In this document: piece after piece, positions 12,909 to 45,545 of the stretch
Layout: every line of letters starts with the position of its first letter
Position numbering within the stretch: position 1 is the first letter of the stretch
NCBI GenBank assembly: GCA_964517135.1
Contig: CAZFBA010000004.1
Span: 68,360-132,359 of the forward strand
Reading direction: 5' to 3'
DNA: 64,000 nt
DNA from: an uncultured Gammaproteobacteria bacterium
Lineage (GTDB): Bacteria > Cyanobacteriota > Vampirovibrionia > JBFMGH01
Notes under the pieces: model-generated
The model's input: the letters and a program-made list of their open reading frames with translations, nothing else
Databases searched by the model: none
What the model was told of the DNA's origin: nothing
Made by a program: the position numbers and the translations under genes

Positions 12909-12937
12909 AAAAAAGGCCGTCAGAATTACTGACAGCC
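12909..12937 (-). terminator. Intrinsic terminator closing the radical SAM / reductase operon
   Basis: Minus strand GGCTGTCAG-taatt-CTGACGGCC followed by a T run. Confidence 0.75.
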
Positions 12938-12965
12938 AATAAGAAACATATAATAAGGTACGTAT

Positions 12966-14135
12966 TTATTTTGCTCCAACGAGCTCGGGAACTTTTTCGT
13001 CTGGTTCTGCTTTTAAATTGCTGGCCTGCTTTGCTTCACTCAGCTTGAGAGAGTTCTTTCTTCTCTTAAGAAGATCAACAAAAGCCTCAAGGCGGGTTAT
13101 AAAGCCTGCTTTGCCCATTTGCTCATCGAGAACGAGTGATAAATAAGGTATATCTTCGACATTCCTGACATTAGGAAGAATGTTTTGAGAGACTATTTCA
13201 GGCATACAGGTAAATGGCAACAGGTGAACAACCCCATCAGTCTTGTTAGCACCAGCCCTTGCAGTATCACCAACAGACTCTATTGCATCTCCACCTACAT
13301 CTCTAGAAAGATAGTTTTTGGCATACCTTGTGGCAATTTCTTCATGGGTTTCATCTTTTCTTAGCCACCTTGGCATCAGGAAAGTTTTAGTCCAGTCGCT
13401 CAGGTTCAAACGCCTGTGAACGTGAACACCCAGTTTACCGAGTTCTTTTTCAATATCCATATTTGAAAAAGGATCCAGAACAACAAATATTTCACCTGTC
13501 AGATCAACATTTAAGACCTCTCTATCAGCATCAACAGGAGTGCTTTTAAGCTCCTCAAGCCCATACTGAAGTGCCTTTTTAGTATCTTTAGGGGTCATAG
13601 CAGCGTCAATAGCTTTAAGACCTTTTTTATATTTAGTATCAGCTATGCCTGGCTTAATTTCTCTTGCCCTATAGTAAGCCAGTGAGTGGTCAAGCTGGTC
13701 AACAACATCTATTTTGACCAGCGCAAGATTAACAGCAGCCATCATATCCAAATAGTTCTTATTGCCAGTTGCCTCACCAAACTTTGTAGCAAGCTCAATG
13801 AGTTTTCCTTTATACAGATCAAAGTTGATAAATTTTACATCACCATAGCCAAGATCCTTTAATGCTCCACGACAAGAGCGAGAATATTGTCCTAATCTGC
13901 ATATACCCGGGCTATCCAGCATTAACAAGGCTTCAGCACCCAGTTCAATGGCTTCAATATAATTTCCAAGCACCAGTTTATATGGCAGGCAAACCGCCTC
14001 CGGGCTGTGTCTTGTGCCCAGCGAAAGAGTTTTTTTGCTGTTATAAGGGGCAATGATAACCTCTCCACCGAGTCTTCTAATAGCACCTGCAAGGGCTATT
14101 GACAGGGTACCCATATGCGGAAAAGAAATCTTCAT
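12966..14135 (-). CDS. 2-hydroxyacyl-CoA dehydratase / 'CoA protein activase'-related subunit (PlsR-like), paralog 2
   Basis: SFPHMG, CLPYK, CRLGQY, GEIFVVLDPF, PFTCMPE, DEQMGKAGFITRLEAFVD. Confidence 0.82.
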   Translation of the reverse strand: MKISFPHMGTLSIALAGAIRRLGGEVIIAPYNSKKTLSLGTRHSPEAVCLPYKLVLGNYIEAIELGAEALLMLDSPGICRLGQYSRSCRGALKDLGYGDVKFINFDLYKGKLIELATKFGEATGNKNYLDMMAAVNLALVKIDVVDQLDHSLAYYRAREIKPGIADTKYKKGLKAIDAAMTPKDTKKALQYGLEELKSTPVDADREVLNVDLTGEIFVVLDPFSNMDIEKELGKLGVHVHRRLNLSDWTKTFLMPRWLRKDETHEEIATRYAKNYLSRDVGGDAIESVGDTARAGANKTDGVVHLLPFTCMPEIVSQNILPNVRNVEDIPYLSLVLDEQMGKAGFITRLEAFVDLLKRRKNSLKLSEAKQASNLKAEPDEKVPELVGAK

Positions 14136-14142
14136 AAGTATT

Positions 14143-15213
14143 TTATCCTATACTAACTTTTTCTATATGTTGTAATTCAAGGTTGCTATCTGCATTAGAG
14201 GATGAAGAAACTTGTTTATTAAGTGTTGTAATAATGCTTTTACGTTTTCTTCTAAGCAGCATGTCTGTAAAAGCTTCCAGTCTAGTTATAAAGCCAGCTT
14301 CACCAGTATGTTCATCAATTGTCAGGTTTAAAACAGGCTTTTTAGCTCTTTTTGCCTTTCTGGTAATTCGCTCAATCATAAGTGAATCAGGGCCGCAGCC
14401 AAAGGCAGTCATAGTAATAATGCCGTCAATATTATCATCATACATATAGTGTCCGGCAACACCTGTAACTTCAGTCTCATTAGCCCAGTATAAAACAGCC
14501 CCAAGTTTTTCGATACCTGCAAATTGATCTTCACGTTTAACTGAATCAGGCACTATAGCATTTGCACCAAGGGCATTAAGTTTCTTAACCAGCCTCATAC
14601 TAAAGTAATTATCATAAATGTTATATGCATGAGAGCATATAACAACATTAATTGGTTTATCAGAAGGCAGTGCACCCGCATCAGGTTTATTACCTGTGGC
14701 AACTGCCAGTGCTGTTTCATAGTAATAACCGGCCTGCATCAGATCCATAAATTTATTATGGCATGCCCAGCCAGCTTTTGAAGCAGCTTTGATTTGTTTT
14801 TTATTTGTAATACCAAGAGGTTTTACTGAATCATAAAGATATTCATGTAACCCCTGGTGCTTTTCAGATTTATCAAGTGTTGGTTCTACTAGCAAGAAGT
14901 CTTTTCTGACAACATTTCTTACTAAATCAGGCAGCCCTCTTAATTTAGAGCAGTTATATATCTTGAAAGCCACAGATTGAATGCTTGGAGAATAAATAGC
15001 ATCAACGTTTTTATCTACCAGATCCAGAACGTGACCAATATATATCTTAACAGGCAGGCAGGTTTCAGGTACTACAAGTGCACTGCCCCTGCTAACCATC
15101 TTTTTATTTGTTTTTCCGGATAGAATCACCTCAATACCCAGGTCATTAAAGAATCCGTACCAGAAAGGGTAGTAAAGATAATACCCCAGAGAACGTGGAA
15201 TACCTATGTGCAT
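14143..15213 (-). CDS. Acyl-CoA dehydratase activase-related protein (DUF2229-like; PlsA reductase-domain-like)
   Basis: IGIPRSLGYYLYYPFW..FF..LG, CLPVK, CSKLRGLPD, FGCGPDS, DEHTGEAGFITRLEAF. Confidence 0.85.
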   Translation of the reverse strand: MHIGIPRSLGYYLYYPFWYGFFNDLGIEVILSGKTNKKMVSRGSALVVPETCLPVKIYIGHVLDLVDKNVDAIYSPSIQSVAFKIYNCSKLRGLPDLVRNVVRKDFLLVEPTLDKSEKHQGLHEYLYDSVKPLGITNKKQIKAASKAGWACHNKFMDLMQAGYYYETALAVATGNKPDAGALPSDKPINVVICSHAYNIYDNYFSMRLVKKLNALGANAIVPDSVKREDQFAGIEKLGAVLYWANETEVTGVAGHYMYDDNIDGIITMTAFGCGPDSLMIERITRKAKRAKKPVLNLTIDEHTGEAGFITRLEAFTDMLLRRKRKSIITTLNKQVSSSSNADSNLELQHIEKVSIG

Positions 15214-16349
15214 AGAGCAAGCTCCTTTTGGGTGGGTTTATAGTACTTATTACGTCTTCTTCTAATAAGATCGACAAAGGCTTCCAGACGTGTAATAAGG
15301 CCAGCCTTACCGGTATACTCATCCATTACGAGGCTAAGAACGGGTATATCCTCATTTTTACTTACATGTGGCAAAATAGATTGAGAAACTATTTCAGGGG
15401 TACAGTTAAATGGCCCTAGATGAACAACACCATCGATGCGCTTTTTGGAAGCGTATACAGCATCACCAATGCTTTCAATGCAGTCACCGCCAATGGCTCT
15501 ATTCATATAGTTTGCAGCATACATTGTTGATCTGTCTCTATGAGACATTTTTCTATAGAGAAATCTTGGCAGCAAAGCATTATTGGTCCAGTCGCTAAGC
15601 ATAACCTGTCTGTCTACTTCACAGCCAAGGTAGCCAAGCTCTTTTTCTATTTCCATATTGGTAAATGGATCCAGCAGAACAAAGAATTCTCCTGTCAGAT
15701 GAACCTGTAAAATATCTCTATCAGGGTCAATCAGCACTTTATCCATTCTGTTAAGAGTTTTTTGAACAGTTTCTCTAATCATGCTGACGCTATTAGCCCT
15801 ATCAATAAGCCTGCGCCCCCTGTTATAGAGTCTTTCGGCTTCTCCTCGTTTGATTTCTCTGGGCCTGATTTGAAAAAGTTTTCTCTCTATAATATCCAGT
15901 GCATCAAACTTGGCAAAGCCAAGACGGGTTGCTCTTACCAGGTCAACAATATTACAACCACCGCTTGCTTCTGCAAACTTAGTTGTAACTTCTTTTAACT
16001 TACCCTTATAGAGGTCAAAGATAATCATATCAAACTCATAACCAAGATCTCTTAGCTTTGCTTCAATGTTACCGGCGTAATTACCAAGGCGGCAGGTACC
16101 GGGAGCCTGAAACATAATTATCGTGTTTGCGCCACGTTCAAGGGCTTGTATGAAGTTACCGAGAATGATTTTATATGGCAGGCAGACGGTTTCTACACTA
16201 TGTCTTGTGCCAAGAGTCAGTGTTTCTTTGTTGTTATAAGGAGGTAAGTGTATCTTAGCCCCCATATGCCTGAGCATACCTGCAACTGGAACTGCAAGAT
16301 TGCCCATCTGTGGGAATGTTACCAGTCGTTCTTGTTCTTTTTTAAGCAT
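15204..16349 (-). CDS. 2-hydroxyacyl-CoA dehydratase / 'CoA protein activase'-related subunit (PlsR-like), paralog 1
   Basis: FPQMG, CLPYK, CRLGNY, GEFFVLLDPF, PFNCTPE, AGLITRLEAFVD; clear paralog of 12966..14135. Confidence 0.82.
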   Translation of the reverse strand: MLKKEQERLVTFPQMGNLAVPVAGMLRHMGAKIHLPPYNNKETLTLGTRHSVETVCLPYKIILGNFIQALERGANTIIMFQAPGTCRLGNYAGNIEAKLRDLGYEFDMIIFDLYKGKLKEVTTKFAEASGGCNIVDLVRATRLGFAKFDALDIIERKLFQIRPREIKRGEAERLYNRGRRLIDRANSVSMIRETVQKTLNRMDKVLIDPDRDILQVHLTGEFFVLLDPFTNMEIEKELGYLGCEVDRQVMLSDWTNNALLPRFLYRKMSHRDRSTMYAANYMNRAIGGDCIESIGDAVYASKKRIDGVVHLGPFNCTPEIVSQSILPHVSKNEDIPVLSLVMDEYTGKAGLITRLEAFVDLIRRRRNKYYKPTQKELALCT

Positions 16350-16380
16350 AATATAGATAACTCCAAATTAAACGAGCAAT

Positions 16381-16587
16381 TTAGCTGCTGACTAACTCTA
16401 GATATGCTTTTGGGCCTCCAATAGAAGCTTTTTGAGGACAAACCCTTTCGCAGGTCTGACAGTCAACGCAGTCATTAGCATTAATCTGGTATTTATTATC
16501 TTCTGTTTTATATATAGCGTCTGTCGGGCAGAGCGGAGCACATGTTCCGCAGGCTGTGCAGAGTTCTTGATTAATTTGATGCGGCAT
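16381..16587 (-). CDS. 2[4Fe-4S] ferredoxin
   Basis: Two CxxCxxCxxxCP motifs; SD AGGAG. Confidence 0.92.
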   Translation of the reverse strand: MPHQINQELCTACGTCAPLCPTDAIYKTEDNKYQINANDCVDCQTCERVCPQKASIGGPKAYLELVSS

Positions 16588-16601
16588 TTTCTACTCCTTT
16601 A

Positions 16602-18236
16602 CTAAACTTTAGAAAGTTCCATTTCTTCAATATCTTCAGTAGATTCAACATCACCTTCATCCACCGGGTCAGCAGAAAGTTTTTCAAGTGCTGTCAGATC
16701 TTTGCCACACTGGCAGCCGCCTTCTAGCTCTTCACATCCACCGTGTTTGTCGCCGTGTGGTTTTTTAGTACTACAGAGTACGACACGGTCGTGATACCAT
16801 TCTCCTGGCAGCGGGAACAGTGTCATAAAGTAGTCTTTAACCCAGTTTTCATCCATAATTTTAGCAACATCATGTGAATATTTGTCGATAGCTTCAGTTA
16901 ATTCAGGTTTTACGAGGTAATCATCAGCGCCTGGATGGGTTGGATATGGTTTAAATTTCTTATAATATCCTCTCAATACCCATGGACGATCAACGATCAT
17001 ACAGGGTCTCATCATATTGCCATCATACGGTGCCCCTTTTCTGATTGCCTGGAAGAATGGGGACTTCAGGGCATCTGTAATAGTGCAATCTTTGATGTTG
17101 TGTGTAGCAAGGTGAACAAATGTACATGGTTCTACGTCACCTGCCGCATTAATATGAATATATTGTCTACCGCCAGCTATACATCCCATCATTTCAGGGC
17201 CATCACCCCAGAAATCAACGGTCATCATTGGCAGTGTATTTCTTGCGTTATAAACGTTCTGTTTAATATATTCTCTCTGTTTTGCATCAGGTATAAGTTC
17301 AGGGTTAGGGCTATTACCCACCGGAACATAGTGAAAAACCCATGTCCAGAGGGAACCTTTATCTGATAGCCATTTCATAAACTTGTCGCTGACAACTTCT
17401 TCAGAGTTCTGTCTGGTAGCTGTAAGAGATGCACCCCAGAATATGCCGGCTTTTGTGAGTTTATCCATTTTTTCTGAAAGCATTTTGAAGCAACCTTCAC
17501 CTCTGATGGCGTCTGTAGATTTTTCCCAGCCAGCCAGACTTAGCATTGGGGCGACATTTCCGAGTTGTCTGAGTTTTTCGATGTTTTTATCTGTTAAGAG
17601 TGAGCCGTTAGTAAAGACCAGAAAGATGCAGTCATCATATTTTTTGGCCAGTTCAAAGAATTCCATTCGGCAGAAAGGTTCACCGCCAACAATTGGCAGT
17701 ATGTGTATGCCGTGTTCATCTCTTGCTTCGCCTAATATTCTGTCCCATTCTTCGATGGGCAGGTCTCTGACTTTGCTCTGATCATATTCTGAAGCCCAGC
17801 AGCCAACGCAGTTAAAGTTGCATTTTTCTGTAATACTTGCCAGCAAGACTGTTGGCGGATAAAAACCGTGTTTATCAAAATATTGAGCTCTTTTCCTCAG
17901 GTTATCTCCATAATATCCGTGTAAGAAGAAATTTGCCAGAAATTTATTTCTGCAATTAGGGTCCAGTGTGTCGATAATCTTTTGCCACCAGTGCAGGTGT
18001 GCATGGTCTGTTTCAAAGAGCCATCTCATTCTGCGTGCGTGACGTACGCCTCCCTCTGAGTGGGCAATTTTTTCAAACATTTTTGTCAGCATGATCAGGT
18101 TTTTCTTGCTGGATGTTGAAACAAAGTTCAAAAACTGGTTTATAACAAAGTTCTGGCCTTTTGTTTTTAGAAAGTCAATGTATTTTGAGCCGGTTCTCTT
18201 TTTCCACATTTGTTCCTGGGGTAATACTCTAAGCAT
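16602..18236 (-). CDS. Radical SAM protein with SPASM/twitch-type C-terminal region
   Basis: CNFNCVGC motif, GGEPF, FTNG, GCIAGG..YIHIN..GDVEPC, RPC; extra Cys-rich acidic tail. Confidence 0.9.
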   Translation of the reverse strand: MLRVLPQEQMWKKRTGSKYIDFLKTKGQNFVINQFLNFVSTSSKKNLIMLTKMFEKIAHSEGGVRHARRMRWLFETDHAHLHWWQKIIDTLDPNCRNKFLANFFLHGYYGDNLRKRAQYFDKHGFYPPTVLLASITEKCNFNCVGCWASEYDQSKVRDLPIEEWDRILGEARDEHGIHILPIVGGEPFCRMEFFELAKKYDDCIFLVFTNGSLLTDKNIEKLRQLGNVAPMLSLAGWEKSTDAIRGEGCFKMLSEKMDKLTKAGIFWGASLTATRQNSEEVVSDKFMKWLSDKGSLWTWVFHYVPVGNSPNPELIPDAKQREYIKQNVYNARNTLPMMTVDFWGDGPEMMGCIAGGRQYIHINAAGDVEPCTFVHLATHNIKDCTITDALKSPFFQAIRKGAPYDGNMMRPCMIVDRPWVLRGYYKKFKPYPTHPGADDYLVKPELTEAIDKYSHDVAKIMDENWVKDYFMTLFPLPGEWYHDRVVLCSTKKPHGDKHGGCEELEGGCQCGKDLTALEKLSADPVDEGDVESTEDIEEMELSKV

Positions 18237-18759
18237 ATTTACTTCCCTTTATACTGTGTACATAACTAATAATATATTAAAGCTAAAAAACTTTATGCAA
18301 ATTCTTTATATATCTAATTCTTCCTCCGTACCTTATTGCTTTCTCTCGTTATTGTGGGTGATAATAGCTATTTTAATATCATTTTACTCAACAAATACTT
18401 ATACTATATGTTTCTGCATAATACCTTATTTAAAATTTATCGTACAACAAATTTTATGTTTTTTACATAAAAATATGTAAAAACCCTGTCTTATTTATAT
18501 TTATGTTAAGAAATTTAACCCAATATTAACCATGGCTACATGTTTACGGTTATGAAGATACAGAGATTCTGAAGACTTACAGGTTTAAGGTTCTTGAAAT
18601 ATTTTTGGTTAAAGCTGTTACATAAACACAATCTTGATATTCGTCGTAAAAGGTTAACTTTGCCTGATAGCCATAAATACCCGCAAAAAGAATAAATCTT
18701 TCATTATGTTGTATTGATCTTTAATAGATGAAATTACCCAGTAAATCTAAATGCATTGG

Positions 18760-19300
18760 CTCAAGATTTTTTCGTTATATATTGATTATAATAGGTGTAT
18801 AGCCTAATTAACAGTCATTCGTTTTTTCTGGTATTTCTATTACCTTGCAAAAGAGAGTTTTAGAGTTTTTAAGGTACTGAATAGTTTTAAAAAACTTGAC
18901 AGGTATTTTACTTAAGCAACAGAAAGTGTTTAATTTTTGCCTAATGGAATTTAAGGTTTTTTAAAATCTGCTATGTGCCTCTTAGAAGGTATTAACAGTT
19001 AATCAGAGAAGAAAGGATTCAAATAATCTCATATTTGCATTAACAAAATATCATCTAACACTGCGTTATCCGTAACTTAAAACTTAGGAAATTTAAGAGA
19101 GACTGGAATCACACCCCCTGCTTCCATCAACTCTCTTACATTGAAGCAATTCAGGCCAGGCTTAATGAGTATTTAGAATCCCAAATTTGCTCTTCTGGCC
19201 AAACTTAATAAAATATAGGTTTAAAAGAAAAAAGAAAGGAGAAAAATAACTCATCTAACAGCTAACACAGGTATTAACGGGTCGGTTAAAAAAGAGGAGA
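18760..19300 (+). promoter_or_regulatory. Promoter and long structured leader, copy A
   Basis: TATAAT at 18787-18792; sequence blocks shared with 20393-20920; hairpins at 19095-19137 and about 19154-19200. Confidence 0.6.
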
Positions 19301-19307
19301 GAGATCT

Positions 19308-20138
19308 ATGACAGCATTTAGTGCTCAAATGCACCAGCACCAATTGAATCTGATCAAGCAGATGGGTAAATATCAAAATAGTATCGCAGAATACAACTTT
19401 AATAAGTTAATCAGGTACTACAAAGATGCTATTAACTCAGCTCAAACGTCAGATGAAGCCAGAGGTATAGCTCAAGCGCTGGAAGGTGTTCTGGCCCAAA
19501 GAGGTCAGGGGCTCGCCGACGTTCAGGGACTTAATACTGATAAACTTACCGGCAATCAGGCAGGCCTCGAAGGGTTGGATCCTGGAAAGGCCGCAAAGCA
19601 AGCCCGTAAAGAACAGTATAAGCCAATGTTTAAAGATCTTGAAGCCGAGTTTAATGTCGCCAGCAATAAAGATGGTGACTGGGCTAAAGCCGCCAAAGAG
19701 AATGAAAATGTACGTATACTAGACAAAAATGGCCAGGATGTCACCCAGACCTTCAATGGTGACAAGTTAAAAGGCTATACGCTTGAGATTAATTCTCAAA
19801 AGTATGGCAAGGTTCAAATTCAGCCCGGCGGAGATGGCAATATTAACGGCGGCGACGACAAAATATTAATGGTTGGCGGTCAGGCCGCAGCCGGAAATAT
19901 GATGGCTGGCCTCCAGGGTATTAATAACCCCACTCAACAGGCTGGCTTATTAAACCCGCTTGCAGGCATTATGGGCCTTAACCCCACTGAACAGGCCGCA
20001 GCCGAAGCTAATCAATATGCTATGCAGCCAGGCATGTTCTCTGAAGCACAGATCAAAAGTCTCATTGCCGCAATCCTGAATCAATCACTTGCTTCTATTG
20101 AACAGAAAGAATATCTTCAACAGTTCAATGTTGCCTGA
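19308..20138 (+). CDS. Gln/Asn-rich hypothetical protein, paralog A
   Basis: SD GAGGAGAG; N- and C-termini nearly identical to 21788..22678; no signal peptide. Confidence 0.85.
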   Translation: MTAFSAQMHQHQLNLIKQMGKYQNSIAEYNFNKLIRYYKDAINSAQTSDEARGIAQALEGVLAQRGQGLADVQGLNTDKLTGNQAGLEGLDPGKAAKQARKEQYKPMFKDLEAEFNVASNKDGDWAKAAKENENVRILDKNGQDVTQTFNGDKLKGYTLEINSQKYGKVQIQPGGDGNINGGDDKILMVGGQAAAGNMMAGLQGINNPTQQAGLLNPLAGIMGLNPTEQAAAEANQYAMQPGMFSEAQIKSLIAAILNQSLASIEQKEYLQQFNVA

Positions 20139-20215
20139 TCGTAGCCTGCCCATAGCGTATATTTCCATATAAGCACTGTTAGAAATACTTCAGGCAACAA
20201 AAACAAGAAGGAACA

Positions 20216-20248
20216 GGGTTAAGGGCTTGCCTGTCAGGCCTTTAACCC
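20216..20248 (+). terminator. Hairpin, possible terminator or processing site
   Basis: GGGTTAAGGGCTT...AGGCCTTTAACCC stem; weak U-tract. Confidence 0.5.
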
Positions 20249-20392
20249 CTCCGGTTTAACAAAATTCTATGCTGTTGCTAAAAAACTGTTAACTTAACTG
20301 AAATCCAGTCACTGTAACTCTTTACTGATCTAGCTAAGTGATTTTACACAGATAAACTTGAGTGAACCTGTCTATCTGGTACCACCAAATAA

Positions 20393-20920
20393 CTCAAGAA
20401 TTTCACTGTATATATTATGTATAATGATTGTAAATAAACAACATCCCTGACAAGATAATTGTTCTGGTATTTCTTTAACCTTATTAGAGAGAGAATTAGA
20501 GTTTTTATGGTACTGAAAGTTTTGAAAGCATTATCAGGTGCGTCTATTAAGTGACAGTTAGTTTTTATCTATTAACCTAAACTGTTTAAGCTAGTTTTAA
20601 CGCTTAAAAATTATGCAAAAAGGTAATTTAACCTGCATCAAAATTCATTTTCATAATGCTTTTCAAAATACTTAATTTAATGCACGACTCTCAACATCGT
20701 CTAAATATGCGTAAAATCAGTTATTATTCACGAAGTATCTTGAGAGAGAATGGAATACCTCCTGTTCCATGCCCGCTCTCTTTCATTAACACAATGAAGA
20801 CTAAATATTGTGCGAGGTTTGAACATTAAGAGGAGTGTAAAAGATGTCATCTACAGTATTTAACCCGGGCTAGCTCCTTTAACTGAACTAATAATTCAGT
20901 ATTTAGTCTAATGACTATAT
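20393..20920 (+). promoter_or_regulatory. Promoter and long structured leader, copy B
   Basis: TATAAT at 20420-20425; homologous to 18760-19140; hairpin 20742-20781, stem 20799-20810/20897-20908. Confidence 0.6.
20844..20873 (+). CDS. Candidate 9-aa leader peptide MSSTVFNPG
   Basis: SD AGAGGAG 8 nt before ATG; the SD can pair with CTCCT immediately after the stop. Confidence 0.3.
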   Translation: MSSTVFNPG

Positions 20921-20929
20921 AAAAATCTA

Positions 20930-21436
20930 GTGACAAAGAGGAGAGAAAACGTGATAAGGGATCATCTTTACAACTACGGCATTGAAGACTCAGAAGATAA
21001 GCTGAACTTTATCAACAGAAACATTGCAAAAAACATTATGACACTTGCTGTAAATATGCTTGATGAATCCAAATTGAATAAAGTTCAAAGCATGCTTTTA
21101 AGTCTAACCAGCTCAGAGCTCAGATCACTAAAAAATTACCTTGATTATCAAAAATATCGCTGTAAAGCTTTTTTGAATACTCAAGAGTATCGCATCATAA
21201 AAGAGATATCAAAAATTGTTCTGTATTCCAGACCTCAGGACCCCTATCTTAAAGAAATTTTAGATGAATATAATGCAAACCTGTCTTTTATAGAAGAATT
21301 GAAAGGAAAAACAACCCAGACAGACAACCCCAAAACACTAAACAAGCTCTATAAAACCATGGATGCCATCAACAAAAGGAATACGGAACTCATTGAAGAG
21401 GTTAACAACTACAAAAAAAGAAAGGAGGATTCATAG
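20930..21436 (+). CDS. Hypothetical helical / coiled-coil protein
   Basis: ORF; likely start is GTG at 20952 behind SD GAGGAGAG. Confidence 0.7.
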   Translation: MTKRRENVIRDHLYNYGIEDSEDKLNFINRNIAKNIMTLAVNMLDESKLNKVQSMLLSLTSSELRSLKNYLDYQKYRCKAFLNTQEYRIIKEISKIVLYSRPQDPYLKEILDEYNANLSFIEELKGKTTQTDNPKTLNKLYKTMDAINKRNTELIEEVNNYKKRKEDS

Positions 21437-21562
21437 ACGAAAACCCCTTTTAAATGTTTACTCTTAAAGATTGAAAGGAAATAATACTTTTTATTTACAA
21501 AACAGAGAGGAGACTAACAACTTACAAAATCTCTTTATTCATATCCCGAGGAGGTGTCTTTA

Positions 21563-21733
21563 ATGCAAAATATTGAAACCTTAATGAAAGAACTAAATCT
21601 TGGCGACGAAATCATCTCAAATACACTTTTAAAGATTGATTTCATCTGCACCAAAAACGGTTACAGAGAGGATGTAAGAAATCTGCAGGCTTTAACCCTC
21701 ACCGGCAACGGCGACGGTAACGGAAATAACTAA
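21563..21733 (+). CDS. Small 56-aa protein not in the ORF track (MQNIETLMKELNLG...GNGDGNGNN)
   Basis: Very strong SD GAGGAGGTG 6 nt before ATG; fills the gap between co-directional genes. Confidence 0.65.
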   Translation: MQNIETLMKELNLGDEIISNTLLKIDFICTKNGYREDVRNLQALTLTGNGDGNGNN

Positions 21734-21787
21734 CCTTAAAGCATTTTAAACATCCTAACAGGTCAGTTAAAGAAGAGGAGAGAGAAA

Positions 21788-22678
21788 ATGACAGCATTTT
21801 CAGCTCAATTGCATCAGCACCAGTTAAATTTGATACAGCAAATGGGTAAATATCAAAACAGTGTAGCTGACTACAACTTCCAGAAGCTTATCAGATACTA
21901 TAAAGATGCAATAAATTCAGCGCAAACCTCACAGGAAGCAAGAGGACTGGCAGAATCACTTCAGGGTGTATTAGCCCAGAAAGGCCAGGGCCTTGCCGAT
22001 GTACAGGGTTTAAATACCAATCTGCTTAACGGAAACCAAAATCAGGCTAATCCGAATCAGGCTAACCCTATAGCAGGGAAGGCTGATGCCGGCAAGCAAA
22101 AAGGCAGCGAAGAAGACAAAAAGATCATTGCAGACCTCAGTCAGGAATATGGCATAGATGTTAAAAAAGCAGGCACCACAAAAGACTGGCTGGAAAAAGC
22201 TAAAACTGATCAAAATGTCAGAGTTCTTGATAATACTGGCAAAGATGTCACTGCTGAACGTGAAGGCAGAATCAAAAAAGGTGATATACTTGAAGTAAAT
22301 TCAAAACAACACGGTTTGGTAAGGATTTCTGTCGGCGGCGACGGTGAAATCAATGGCGGAGACGATAAAGTTATTATGAAAGGCGGCCAGGCTGCTGCAG
22401 GAAACATGATGGATGGTCTCAATCAGATTAACAACGTCCCGGGTCAGCAACAGGCCAACCCCGCACAACCAAACGCTGTTAATAACCTTGCTCAAGCTCT
22501 TGGTATTACACCTGATCAGGCTGTTCAAAACCAGTTAGCCATGAATCCGGATGCAACCAACCAGCAAGCTCTGTTTACTGAAGCTCAGATAAAAAGCCTG
22601 ATTGCTGCTATTTTGAATCAGTCATTGTCTGCTATTGAACAGAGACAATATATGCAACAAATGCAACAAGTTTTTTAA
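21788..22678 (+). CDS. Gln/Asn-rich hypothetical protein, paralog B
   Basis: MTAFSAQ.HQHQLNLI.QMGKYQNS N-terminus, GGDG.INGGDDK core and EAQIKSLIAAILNQSL C-terminus shared with 19308..20138. Confidence 0.85.
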   Translation: MTAFSAQLHQHQLNLIQQMGKYQNSVADYNFQKLIRYYKDAINSAQTSQEARGLAESLQGVLAQKGQGLADVQGLNTNLLNGNQNQANPNQANPIAGKADAGKQKGSEEDKKIIADLSQEYGIDVKKAGTTKDWLEKAKTDQNVRVLDNTGKDVTAEREGRIKKGDILEVNSKQHGLVRISVGGDGEINGGDDKVIMKGGQAAAGNMMDGLNQINNVPGQQQANPAQPNAVNNLAQALGITPDQAVQNQLAMNPDATNQQALFTEAQIKSLIAAILNQSLSAIEQRQYMQQMQQVF

Positions 22679-45458: not shown

Positions 45459-45545
45459 GCCTTGGTGGCGGAATTGGTAGACGCGCCGGACTTAAAATCC
45501 GGTGAGGCCCAAAACCTCGTGCCAGTTCGATTCTGGCCCAAGGCA
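45459..45545 (+). tRNA. tRNA-Leu(TAA)
   Basis: Acceptor GCCTTGG/CCAAGGC, D-loop GGAATTGGTAGAC, anticodon arm CCGGA-CTTAAAA-TCCGG, long variable arm, GTTCGA T-loop; CCA not encoded. Confidence 0.96.

Follow-up and report, generated by a model that had tools for sequence, protein, structure and literature searches.

A radical SAM protein, very likely of the Mss family, is encoded with a ferredoxin and split Red1/Red2-type reductase subunits in a Melainabacterial operon

Results

A five-gene operon for a radical SAM protein, a ferredoxin and three reductase subunits

We analysed a 64-kb stretch of contig CAZFBA010000004.1 (assembly GCA_964517135.1), referred to here as the window, which carries on its minus strand an operon for a radical SAM protein (rSAM), a ferredoxin and three subunits of a putative reductase, named A1, B and A2. 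An initial annotation of the segment 12909-18236 had described five close-set minus-strand genes with one terminator, two paralogous reductase subunits around a DUF2229-like one, and no activase among them, and our analysis bears out all three points. Positions 12966-18236 hold five open reading frames (ORFs) in the order rSAM, ferredoxin, A1, B and A2, which end in one terminator-like site (Table 1). The gaps are 14 nt between rSAM and the ferredoxin gene, 31 nt between the latter and A1, and 7 nt between B and A2, while A1 and B overlap by 10 nt. A1 and A2, which flank B, share 51.5% identity over 359 residues, while either of them is ~22-23% identical to B. Pfam detected no BcrAD_BadFG (PF01869) ATPase domain in the five operon proteins, and NCBIfam assigned none of them to a specific family.

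Because the number of terminator-like sites in the region is no higher than chance (4 observed, 4.8 expected from shuffles), the hairpin behind A2 counts only for its position. Promoter-like sites found across the region by a promoter scan were not above chance either; the operon promoter presumably sits in the AT-rich stretch upstream of rSAM. Rfam returned no family in or near the operon.

Table 1 Features of the operon and related genes of the same genome. Positions refer to the window unless a contig of the same assembly (C2, C11) is given.
Feature	Position	Strand	Description
Radical SAM protein (rSAM)	16602-18236	-	544 aa; Radical_SAM and SPASM (Pfam)
Ferredoxin, 2x[4Fe-4S]	16381-16587	-	68 aa; Fer4
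A1, PlsR/Red2-type subunit	15204-16349	-	381 aa; BCR/HAD-superfamily reductase subunit
B, Red1-type subunit	14143-15213	-	356 aa; full DUF2229 (PF09989)
A2, second PlsR/Red2-type subunit	12966-14135	-	389 aa; old A1 paralogue
Terminator-like hairpin and T-run	12937-12915	-	9 pairs, 6 GC; directly after A2
AT-rich non-coding stretch	18237-19307		1.07 kb; upstream of operon, common to divergent gene
Stand-alone activase	C2:128791-129801		336 aa; BcrAD_BadFG 3.7e-46; other contig of the same genome
Fused PlsA/Ger-type protein	C11:33154-37464	-	1436 aa; two BcrAD_BadFG, DUF2229 and A-type C-terminus

The radical SAM protein very likely belongs to the Mss family

The first protein of the operon matches the Pfam families Radical_SAM (6.6e-17) and SPASM (5.3e-05). 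Its N-terminus is an all-helical domain (~residues 1-125), which precedes the radical SAM core with the motif CxxxCxxC (C139, C143 and C146) and a twitch/SPASM-like part holding C352, C371 and C412. All six of these core and auxiliary cysteines are invariant in 19/19 sequences and in 22/22 of a second set. Four additional cysteines lie in a C-terminal tail (C488, C501, C508 and C510; Cys-x12-Cys-x6-Cys-x-Cys), which is present at all four positions in 16/16 Melainabacterial sequences and in 0/6 others. This Cys4 tail may form an extra metal or cluster site; the segment (residues 488-544, window positions 16602-16773) is modelled at a pLDDT below 50. Together with the tail, an identity of about 36-44% to all other members sets the Melainabacterial proteins apart as a divergent branch.

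rSAM belongs to a very large family. Members were matched in at least 599 stretches of species-representative genomes and in 183 of 401 genomes of one Bacillota-type phylum, and at least 7997 proteins match the Caldicellulosiruptor member at E <= 1e-30. None of the named producers of membrane-spanning lipids (MSL) was among the best 80 of the at least 599 genome-contig matches, and no Thermotoga or Thermoanaerobacter ethanolicus entry was among the best 120 of each protein search. Family members were named by exact look-up of ORF translations, and T. ethanolicus was reached via a whole-genome search. The class with Caldicellulosiruptor and Thermoanaerobacter has a member in 40/40 genomes, and T. 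ethanolicus carries it as a single copy. This protein (P0416) shares a 90% cluster with proteins of T. wiegelii, T. thermohydrosulfuricus, Caldanaerobacter subterraneus and T. kivui, and other named members come from Caldicellulosiruptor owensensis, Thermosediminibacter oceani and Moorella thermoacetica.

Mss has been characterised as Tmari_0825 / AGL49750 from Thermotoga maritima and as the enzyme of T. ethanolicus (Sahonero-Canavesi et al. 2022, PMC13159169), and Fig. 4A of PMC13159169 aligns MSL synthases from nine iso-diabolic-acid producers. Seven of these nine species are represented by named members of the rSAM family (T. ethanolicus, T. wiegelii, T. thermohydrosulfuricus, Caldanaerobacter subterraneus, C. 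owensensis, T. oceani and M. thermoacetica), while no such member turned up for F. ferrireducens and T. siderophilus. Over alignments of about 390-447 residues, rSAM is 36% identical to P0416 (E 7e-92) and 34-37% identical to the members from C. owensensis, T. oceani and M. thermoacetica (E 3e-100 to 3e-103). With P0416 and its kin as reference in place of a characterised Mss, these identities and E-values exceed the published thresholds for Mss homology, i.e., an identity >= 30% at E <= 1e-50 (PMC13159169, section 9) or, alternatively, E <= 1e-30 (PMC13274423, methods). The taxa of the rSAM family also agree with those published for Mss homologues, Melainabacteria included (further Chloroflexota, Thermodesulfobacteriota, Omnitrophota, Spirochaetota, Actinomycetota, Patescibacteria and DPANN; PMC13159169, section 9; PMC11868695). 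By species, copy number and thresholds the family fits the published Mss, in line with the lipid pathway inferred by the initial annotation. As judged from its sequence, rSAM very likely belongs to the Mss family and is likely a lipid C-C coupling enzyme.

Like Mss, rSAM joins the radical SAM motif CxxxCxxC to auxiliary cysteines, and both show the same spread across phyla, with Melainabacteria and DPANN. Unlike Mss, rSAM has an extended N-terminus and the Cys4 tail found in Melainabacteria only, which makes it longer by about 80-100 residues. Its gene would, moreover, be co-transcribed with genes for a ferredoxin and a reductase of its own, a setting not described for Mss in the texts consulted.

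The AlphaFold2 model of rSAM (pLDDT 83.2, pTM 0.84) is closest in fold to the SPASM/twitch enzymes SkfB, SuiB, CteB and anSME, and ESM Atlas returned generic radical SAM/SPASM clusters only. Tes/GDGT-MAS (MJ0619; 7TOL, 7TOM) is a radical SAM enzyme that couples lipid tails, and its core aligns with that of rSAM (E 7.3e-06, residues 129-263). Given an alignment confined to the core and a structural rank of 40-41 (TM 0.34-0.39), we rejected a Tes-like identity and assign the two proteins to different families. A maturase of ribosomally synthesised and post-translationally modified peptides (RiPPs), as the best folds SkfB and SuiB might imply, was considered but not favoured: the neighbouring genes speak for lipids, and a gene for a precursor peptide did not stand out, though no search aimed at one was made.

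It is conceivable that the operon encodes an ether or plasmalogen synthase only, and that rSAM modifies the lipid otherwise (by a methylation-like reaction, cyclisation or hydroxylation) or matures the reductase. Such a role would suit the divergent, tail-bearing Melainabacterial branch, which is known from sequence alone, and the nearest solved folds, which are peptide and cofactor maturases. However, the residues that are invariant throughout the family are kept in rSAM, including all six core and auxiliary cysteines, and it is 34-37% identical, over about 390-447 aligned residues, to members from diabolic-acid producers. A maturase is further disfavoured by the many loci, the majority of those examined, in which rSAM has no linked reductase (see below). 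We consider this alternative unlikely.

B, A1 and A2 correspond to split Red1 and Red2 modules

B matches DUF2229 over profile positions 2-218 of 218 (164.1 bits, 4.8e-48). The same profile scores 31.1 bits in A1 and 36.5 bits in A2, with a cut-off of 29.4, and the HGD-D C-terminus scores 24.6-25.9 bits in all three subunits (A1 25.1, A2 24.6), which is under its cut-off of 28.4.

The genome also encodes a fused PlsA/Ger-type protein of 1436 aa, in which two consecutive ATPase domains are followed by a B-type module (residues 661-975) and an A-type module (1007-1432). BLASTP placed B on residues 661-972 of this protein, A1 on 1007-1422 and A1/A2 together on about 1007-1432, with about 22-25% identity between the split subunits and the respective modules. 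For PlsA/PlsR and Ger, the layout Act1-Act2-Red1-Red2 has been published (PMC12838417, legend of Fig. 8), and the same architecture is given as BBDHDDH in PMC13159169 (section 10); PlsA/PlsR are also treated in PMC9702350 and in the preprint 10.64898/2026.06.23.733905. Since the domain order of the fused protein and the BLASTP mapping match this published layout, B is, by sequence correspondence, a free Red1 module and A1 and A2 are free Red2 (PlsR-type) modules. The initial annotation had spoken of split subunits with a duplicated A type, and the mapping onto the fused protein agrees with it.

[quoted passage not shown] They share with the present system collinear Red1 (B) and Red2 (A1/A2) modules, the fold of the benzoyl-CoA reductase/2-hydroxyacyl-CoA dehydratase (BCR/HAD) superfamily and three conserved cysteines per subunit. 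In contrast to them, the reductase described here is fully split and without a fused ATPase, its activase lies on another contig, and two Red2-type paralogues per Red1 are tied to a radical SAM protein and a ferredoxin. PlsA homologues without activation domain have been noted before, and their role was called unclear (PMC13274423, section 18).

We compared the cysteines of A- and B-type sequences drawn from four lineages. C56, C86 and C316 (A1 numbering) are invariant in 11/11 A-type sequences, and C52, C88 and C273 in 9/9 B-type sequences. Three cysteines per subunit would be expected if each subunit carries one [4Fe-4S] cluster, and by analogy these residues are candidate cluster ligands.

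A1 was modelled by AlphaFold with a pLDDT of 87.5. All Foldseek matches of this model at E <= 0.001 (ranks 1-20) are DCCP, BzdNO, MbdON and LcdAB, with TM scores of 0.51-0.59, E-values of 1e-9 to 4e-7 and a sequence identity of 9-16%. A1 thus has the fold of HgdAB, LcdAB (3O3M), BzdNO (8S02), MbdON and DCCP (6ENO, 7YZM), and by analogy to the dehydratases, benzoyl-CoA reductases and DCCP its reductase would need an ATP-dependent partner that injects electrons. Apart from the low sequence identity, the operon differs from HgdAB, LcdAB, BzdNO and DCCP in that no genes of CoA-ester metabolism lie near it, and from the 2-hydroxyacyl-CoA dehydratases in the HGD-D score under cut-off and the lack of a CoA-transferase context. 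A phmmer search of the PDB with the subunits gave no match below E 0.1, dehydratases included, and the A1 model is equidistant from dehydratases, benzoyl-CoA reductases and DCCP. We conclude that the subunits belong to the BCR/HAD radical-enzyme superfamily and, as judged by PDB sequence search and fold, do not group with the dehydratases of amino-acid fermentation, a grouping that the initial annotation had named as the outcome contrary to a lipid pathway.

To place the two A subunits, we computed a quick tree of 33 A-type sequences, with SH-aLRT support only. The Melainabacterial A proteins fall into two clades with an SH-aLRT of 98 each, one uniting A1 with the A protein of a gene island in gut relatives (see below) and the other uniting A2 with A3, an orphan A protein of the same genome to which A2 is 59.4% identical. 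As A1 and A2 stand in separate supported clades, the duplication of A is old. A fourth, distant A-type paralogue of 371 aa stands alone at C2:13514-14629 and is ~24% identical to A1, A2 and A3. Altogether, three reductase sets are present in one genome: the fused protein, a core split reductase and the rSAM-linked subunits.

A stand-alone activase is encoded elsewhere in the genome

For the activase that the operon lacks, a remote gene had been one of two options offered by the initial annotation, the other being a different electron source. A genome search found a stand-alone activase on contig C2 (Table 1). A paralogue of B starts 24 nt after it, and window B is 62.5% identical to this paralogue.

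We further examined 59 loci with rSAM homologues outside Melainabacteria, many of them with short flanks. Seven of the 59 (L083, L085, L088, L092, L097, L098 and L115) combine rSAM, A, B and a stand-alone activase. Their gene orders vary, and their activases are 48-58% identical to that on C2; the metagenome-assembled genomes (MAGs) concerned are labelled Deltaproteobacteria, Syntrophaceae, Thermodesulfobacteriota and Dehalococcoidia. Four more loci (L102, L113, L114 and L116) have an activase close to rSAM. One of the seven, L092 from a delta proteobacterium MAG, encodes A and B fused in a single ORF of 741 aa (L092:15024-17249, minus strand), which lies tail to tail with the stand-alone activase and 5.6 kb from rSAM; an NHL/CsgG-like lipoprotein and an MMPL transporter are encoded between the fusion and rSAM. 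Within a family of gut relatives (f2), exactly one unlinked activase with 70-75% identity is present in 123/123 sampled genomes, which are kin, so that this and the following f2 counts are not independent events. Because of the B paralogue adjoining the activase, the loci elsewhere that unite rSAM, A, B and activase, and the activase found in all f2 genomes, the C2 activase is likely the partner of the operon, as far as sequence and gene context can tell.

The ferredoxin of the operon matches Fer4 (2e-15) with two CxxCxxCxxxCP motifs and scores 58.3 bits with the NCBIfam model FdxA_fam, under the cut-off of 65. By analogy, it is a probable low-potential electron donor to the rSAM cluster and/or to the activase. 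Ferredoxin is the usual donor to the ATP-dependent reductase of BCR/HAD/DCCP enzymes. One might instead propose that electrons pass straight from the ferredoxin to the A/B clusters, with no need for an ATP-driven activase, so that the operon would be complete in itself. This proposal draws on the five operon proteins being devoid of an ATPase domain, on the place of the ferredoxin gene between rSAM and A1, which is kept in 12 metagenome loci, and on the deltaproteobacterial and Dehalococcoidia clusters, where no ferredoxin match was found beside the activase. Against it stand the activase next to a close B paralogue in the genome itself, the orthologous activases within rSAM-A-B operons of other phyla and the single activase of every sampled gut relative. 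To our knowledge, moreover, an ATP-dependent reductase is required by all BCR/HAD/DCCP enzymes characterised so far. An activase-independent operon therefore seems very unlikely to us, and we retain the C2 activase as the likely partner.

The gene order is conserved and homologues lie among lipid genes

We assessed the conservation of the operon by a scan of metagenome contigs. The order rSAM, ferredoxin, A1, B and A2 is complete in 10 metagenome loci (L202, L204, L205, L206 and L208-L213), with 59-73% identity per protein. Three others (L203, L207 and L214) are cut by contig ends and consistent with the five-gene order, L214 being without a ferredoxin match, and three further loci end at rSAM; L224 has an A1 fragment 2 kb downstream. 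The ferredoxin kept in place in 12 of the loci is 49-62% identical to that of the window. No activase was matched in any of these metagenome loci. Because the order recurs in 10 of them, the five-gene arrangement is not due to chance.

Gut relatives of family f2 show a different form of linkage. A core B is present in 123/123 genomes, and a core A in 5/5 checked. Of the 31 genomes that bear rSAM, 30 have a second B, which occurs in 0/92 genomes without rSAM; the one rSAM-bearing genome that has no second B, G177, is an assembly of 110 contigs. The second B and an A1-type A lie on the same contig as rSAM, at most 8 kb upstream in 10 of 14 loci and at 19-24 kb in the other four. The gut core A is 55-57% identical to A3 and the gut core B 60% to the activase-linked B of the window genome, while the A protein of the gut island is closest to A1 (49-51%). 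Despite the kinship of the genomes, the picture is clear: the lineage has a core split reductase, whose activase, B and A are unlinked, and rSAM travels with an extra B and A that would share the single activase.

The gut island is illustrated by L051:110-10232 (Gastranaerophilaceae genome G087) and its sister loci, in which B2, a PHP-domain protein, an A1-type A, a second radical SAM protein, a Wza/SLBB polysaccharide exporter, a diacylglycerol (DAG)-kinase-type lipid kinase on the opposite strand, the Mss-family rSAM and a PAP2 phosphatase follow each other. The second radical SAM protein of the island has 375 aa and a weak match to DUF3463.

The neighbourhoods of rSAM homologues point to lipids. 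PAP2 phosphatase and DAG-kinase-type lipid kinase genes flank rSAM in the gut relatives. Syntrophaceae-type clusters of rSAM, A, B and activase additionally hold genes for an ATP-grasp protein, a GT2 protein, a B12-binding radical SAM protein, an LpxL-type acyltransferase, an acyl carrier protein (ACP) and a FabD-like acyltransferase, and rSAM of L092 is found with an MMPL exporter. In L083 (12419-15938) and L085 (12491-16073), the B12-binding radical SAM protein, the LpxL-type acyltransferase, the ACP and the FabD-like acyltransferase are encoded downstream of rSAM, A, B and activase, and each of the two looks like a dedicated lipid biosynthetic cluster.

These neighbourhoods also bear on the idea that the substrate of rSAM and the BCR/HAD-type reductase is not a membrane lipid but a soluble thioester, an aromatic compound or an intermediate of secondary metabolism. 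The superfamily does span CoA-ester dehydratases, arene reductases and DCCP, the last being a small-molecule reductase, and the window's own flanks contain no lipid gene. Yet B is a full-length protein of the DUF2229 domain of PlsA/Ger, the dehydratases of the PDB are not matched at E < 0.1, the operon has no CoA-transferase or acyl-CoA gene, and in three other lineages the homologues have lipid genes around them. We regard a non-lipid function as highly improbable.

A proposed route to ether-linked and membrane-spanning lipids

On balance, we favour the view that the operon is a self-contained module devoted to lipids with ether links, which may also span the membrane, and that it uses a shared activase. 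This view builds on observations of gene order, domains and folds, of conserved cysteines, and of synteny and co-occurrence, from which we infer substrates, products, subunit pairing, the electron path and the action of the activase on this reductase as follows. Reduced ferredoxin, probably the co-encoded one, would supply an electron to the rSAM cluster. rSAM would then cleave SAM, take a hydrogen from the end of an acyl chain of a glycerolipid and couple two chains to a membrane-spanning, diacid-type lipid. B would pair with A1 and/or A2 to give a heterodimeric [4Fe-4S] enzyme of the BCR/HAD superfamily, which would turn the glycerol ester bonds in those lipids into vinyl or alkyl ethers by reduction. 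The C2 activase would prime this reductase in trans with ATP and an electron derived from ferredoxin, and the same single activase would also serve the core reductase, i.e., the adjoining B paralogue and the orphan A3.

The two A paralogues might further form two reductases that share B, one for the sn-1 ester and one for the sn-2 ester (or the second glycerol end), a refinement that we hold to be quite improbable. If true, rSAM, ferredoxin, A1-B-A2 and the activase in trans would together make up a minimal yet complete pathway to fully ether-linked spanning lipids of the branched glycerol dialkyl glycerol tetraether (GDGT) kind, and the missing activity for sn-2 ether formation, assigned to a yet-unknown enzyme in a 2026 study on Bacillota (PMC13274423, sections 15 and 18), would be supplied.

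Several observations weigh against a dedicated ether and spanning-lipid module. As to rSAM, its assignment to Mss was made by comparison with P0416 and its kin, and the identification of P0416 with the expressed Mss rests on copy number and species overlap. Structurally, the lipid enzyme GDGT-MAS ranks behind SkfB, SuiB and anSME, and the chemistry of the divergent, tail-bearing Melainabacterial rSAM may differ from that of the rest of the family. No A, B or activase was found within the available flanks of 48 of the 59 non-Melainabacterial loci, so that the rSAM family would mostly work without a linked reductase. The Pfam scores of A1 and A2 are marginal. Confirmed alkyl-ether producers are all reported to have two fused activation domains (PMC13159169, section 10), whereas the present system has one stand-alone activase. 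Finally, the sequencing runs with the stretch are DNA only and labelled sludge metagenome, with no RNA run listed.

Homologues of Mss and Ger have been listed for the "Cyanobacteria/Melainabacteria group" (PMC13159169). In the literature searched, supplements not being covered, we found no paper on the lipids of Melainabacteria and none that describes an Mss-family gene linked to a dedicated split Red1/Red2 set with a stand-alone activase in common use. The synthesis of ether-bound membrane-spanning lipids in anaerobic bacteria, including the branched GDGTs that serve as palaeoclimate proxies, is still open; Mss and Ger have been described as genes apart from each other, and the order of their steps is unknown. 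In the present locus and in related ones, an Mss-family enzyme is linked genetically to a reductase pair that is its own and lacks an activase. This linkage takes the form of one operon in environmental Melainabacteria, of an operon with activase in Thermodesulfobacteriota-type bacteria and Dehalococcoidia, and of a gain-and-loss island in gut Gastranaerophilaceae, and it suggests a function for orphan reductases. Ether or spanning lipids are thereby predicted in the non-photosynthetic sisters of cyanobacteria, members from the human gut included, and the operon together with the activase offers a compact set of six genes for the open question of ether and spanning lipids.

Host organism and surroundings of the operon

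The nearest homologues of rSAM are labelled Candidatus Melainabacteria or Gastranaerophilales, in agreement with the cyanobacterial sister lineage proposed by the initial annotation. The source assembly comprises 4.06 Mb and is 98.8% complete. We take the host to be an anaerobic, non-photosynthetic Melainabacterium.

The operon is flanked in the window by genes for an M24 peptidase, a DHHA1 protein and a tetratricopeptide repeat (TPR) protein and by three ORFs without Pfam match. At 19308-22678, plus-strand ORFs of 276, 168 and 296 aa run divergently from the operon and have no Pfam match. The only Rfam match of the window is a tRNA gene at 45459-45545 (RF00005, 61.4 bits).

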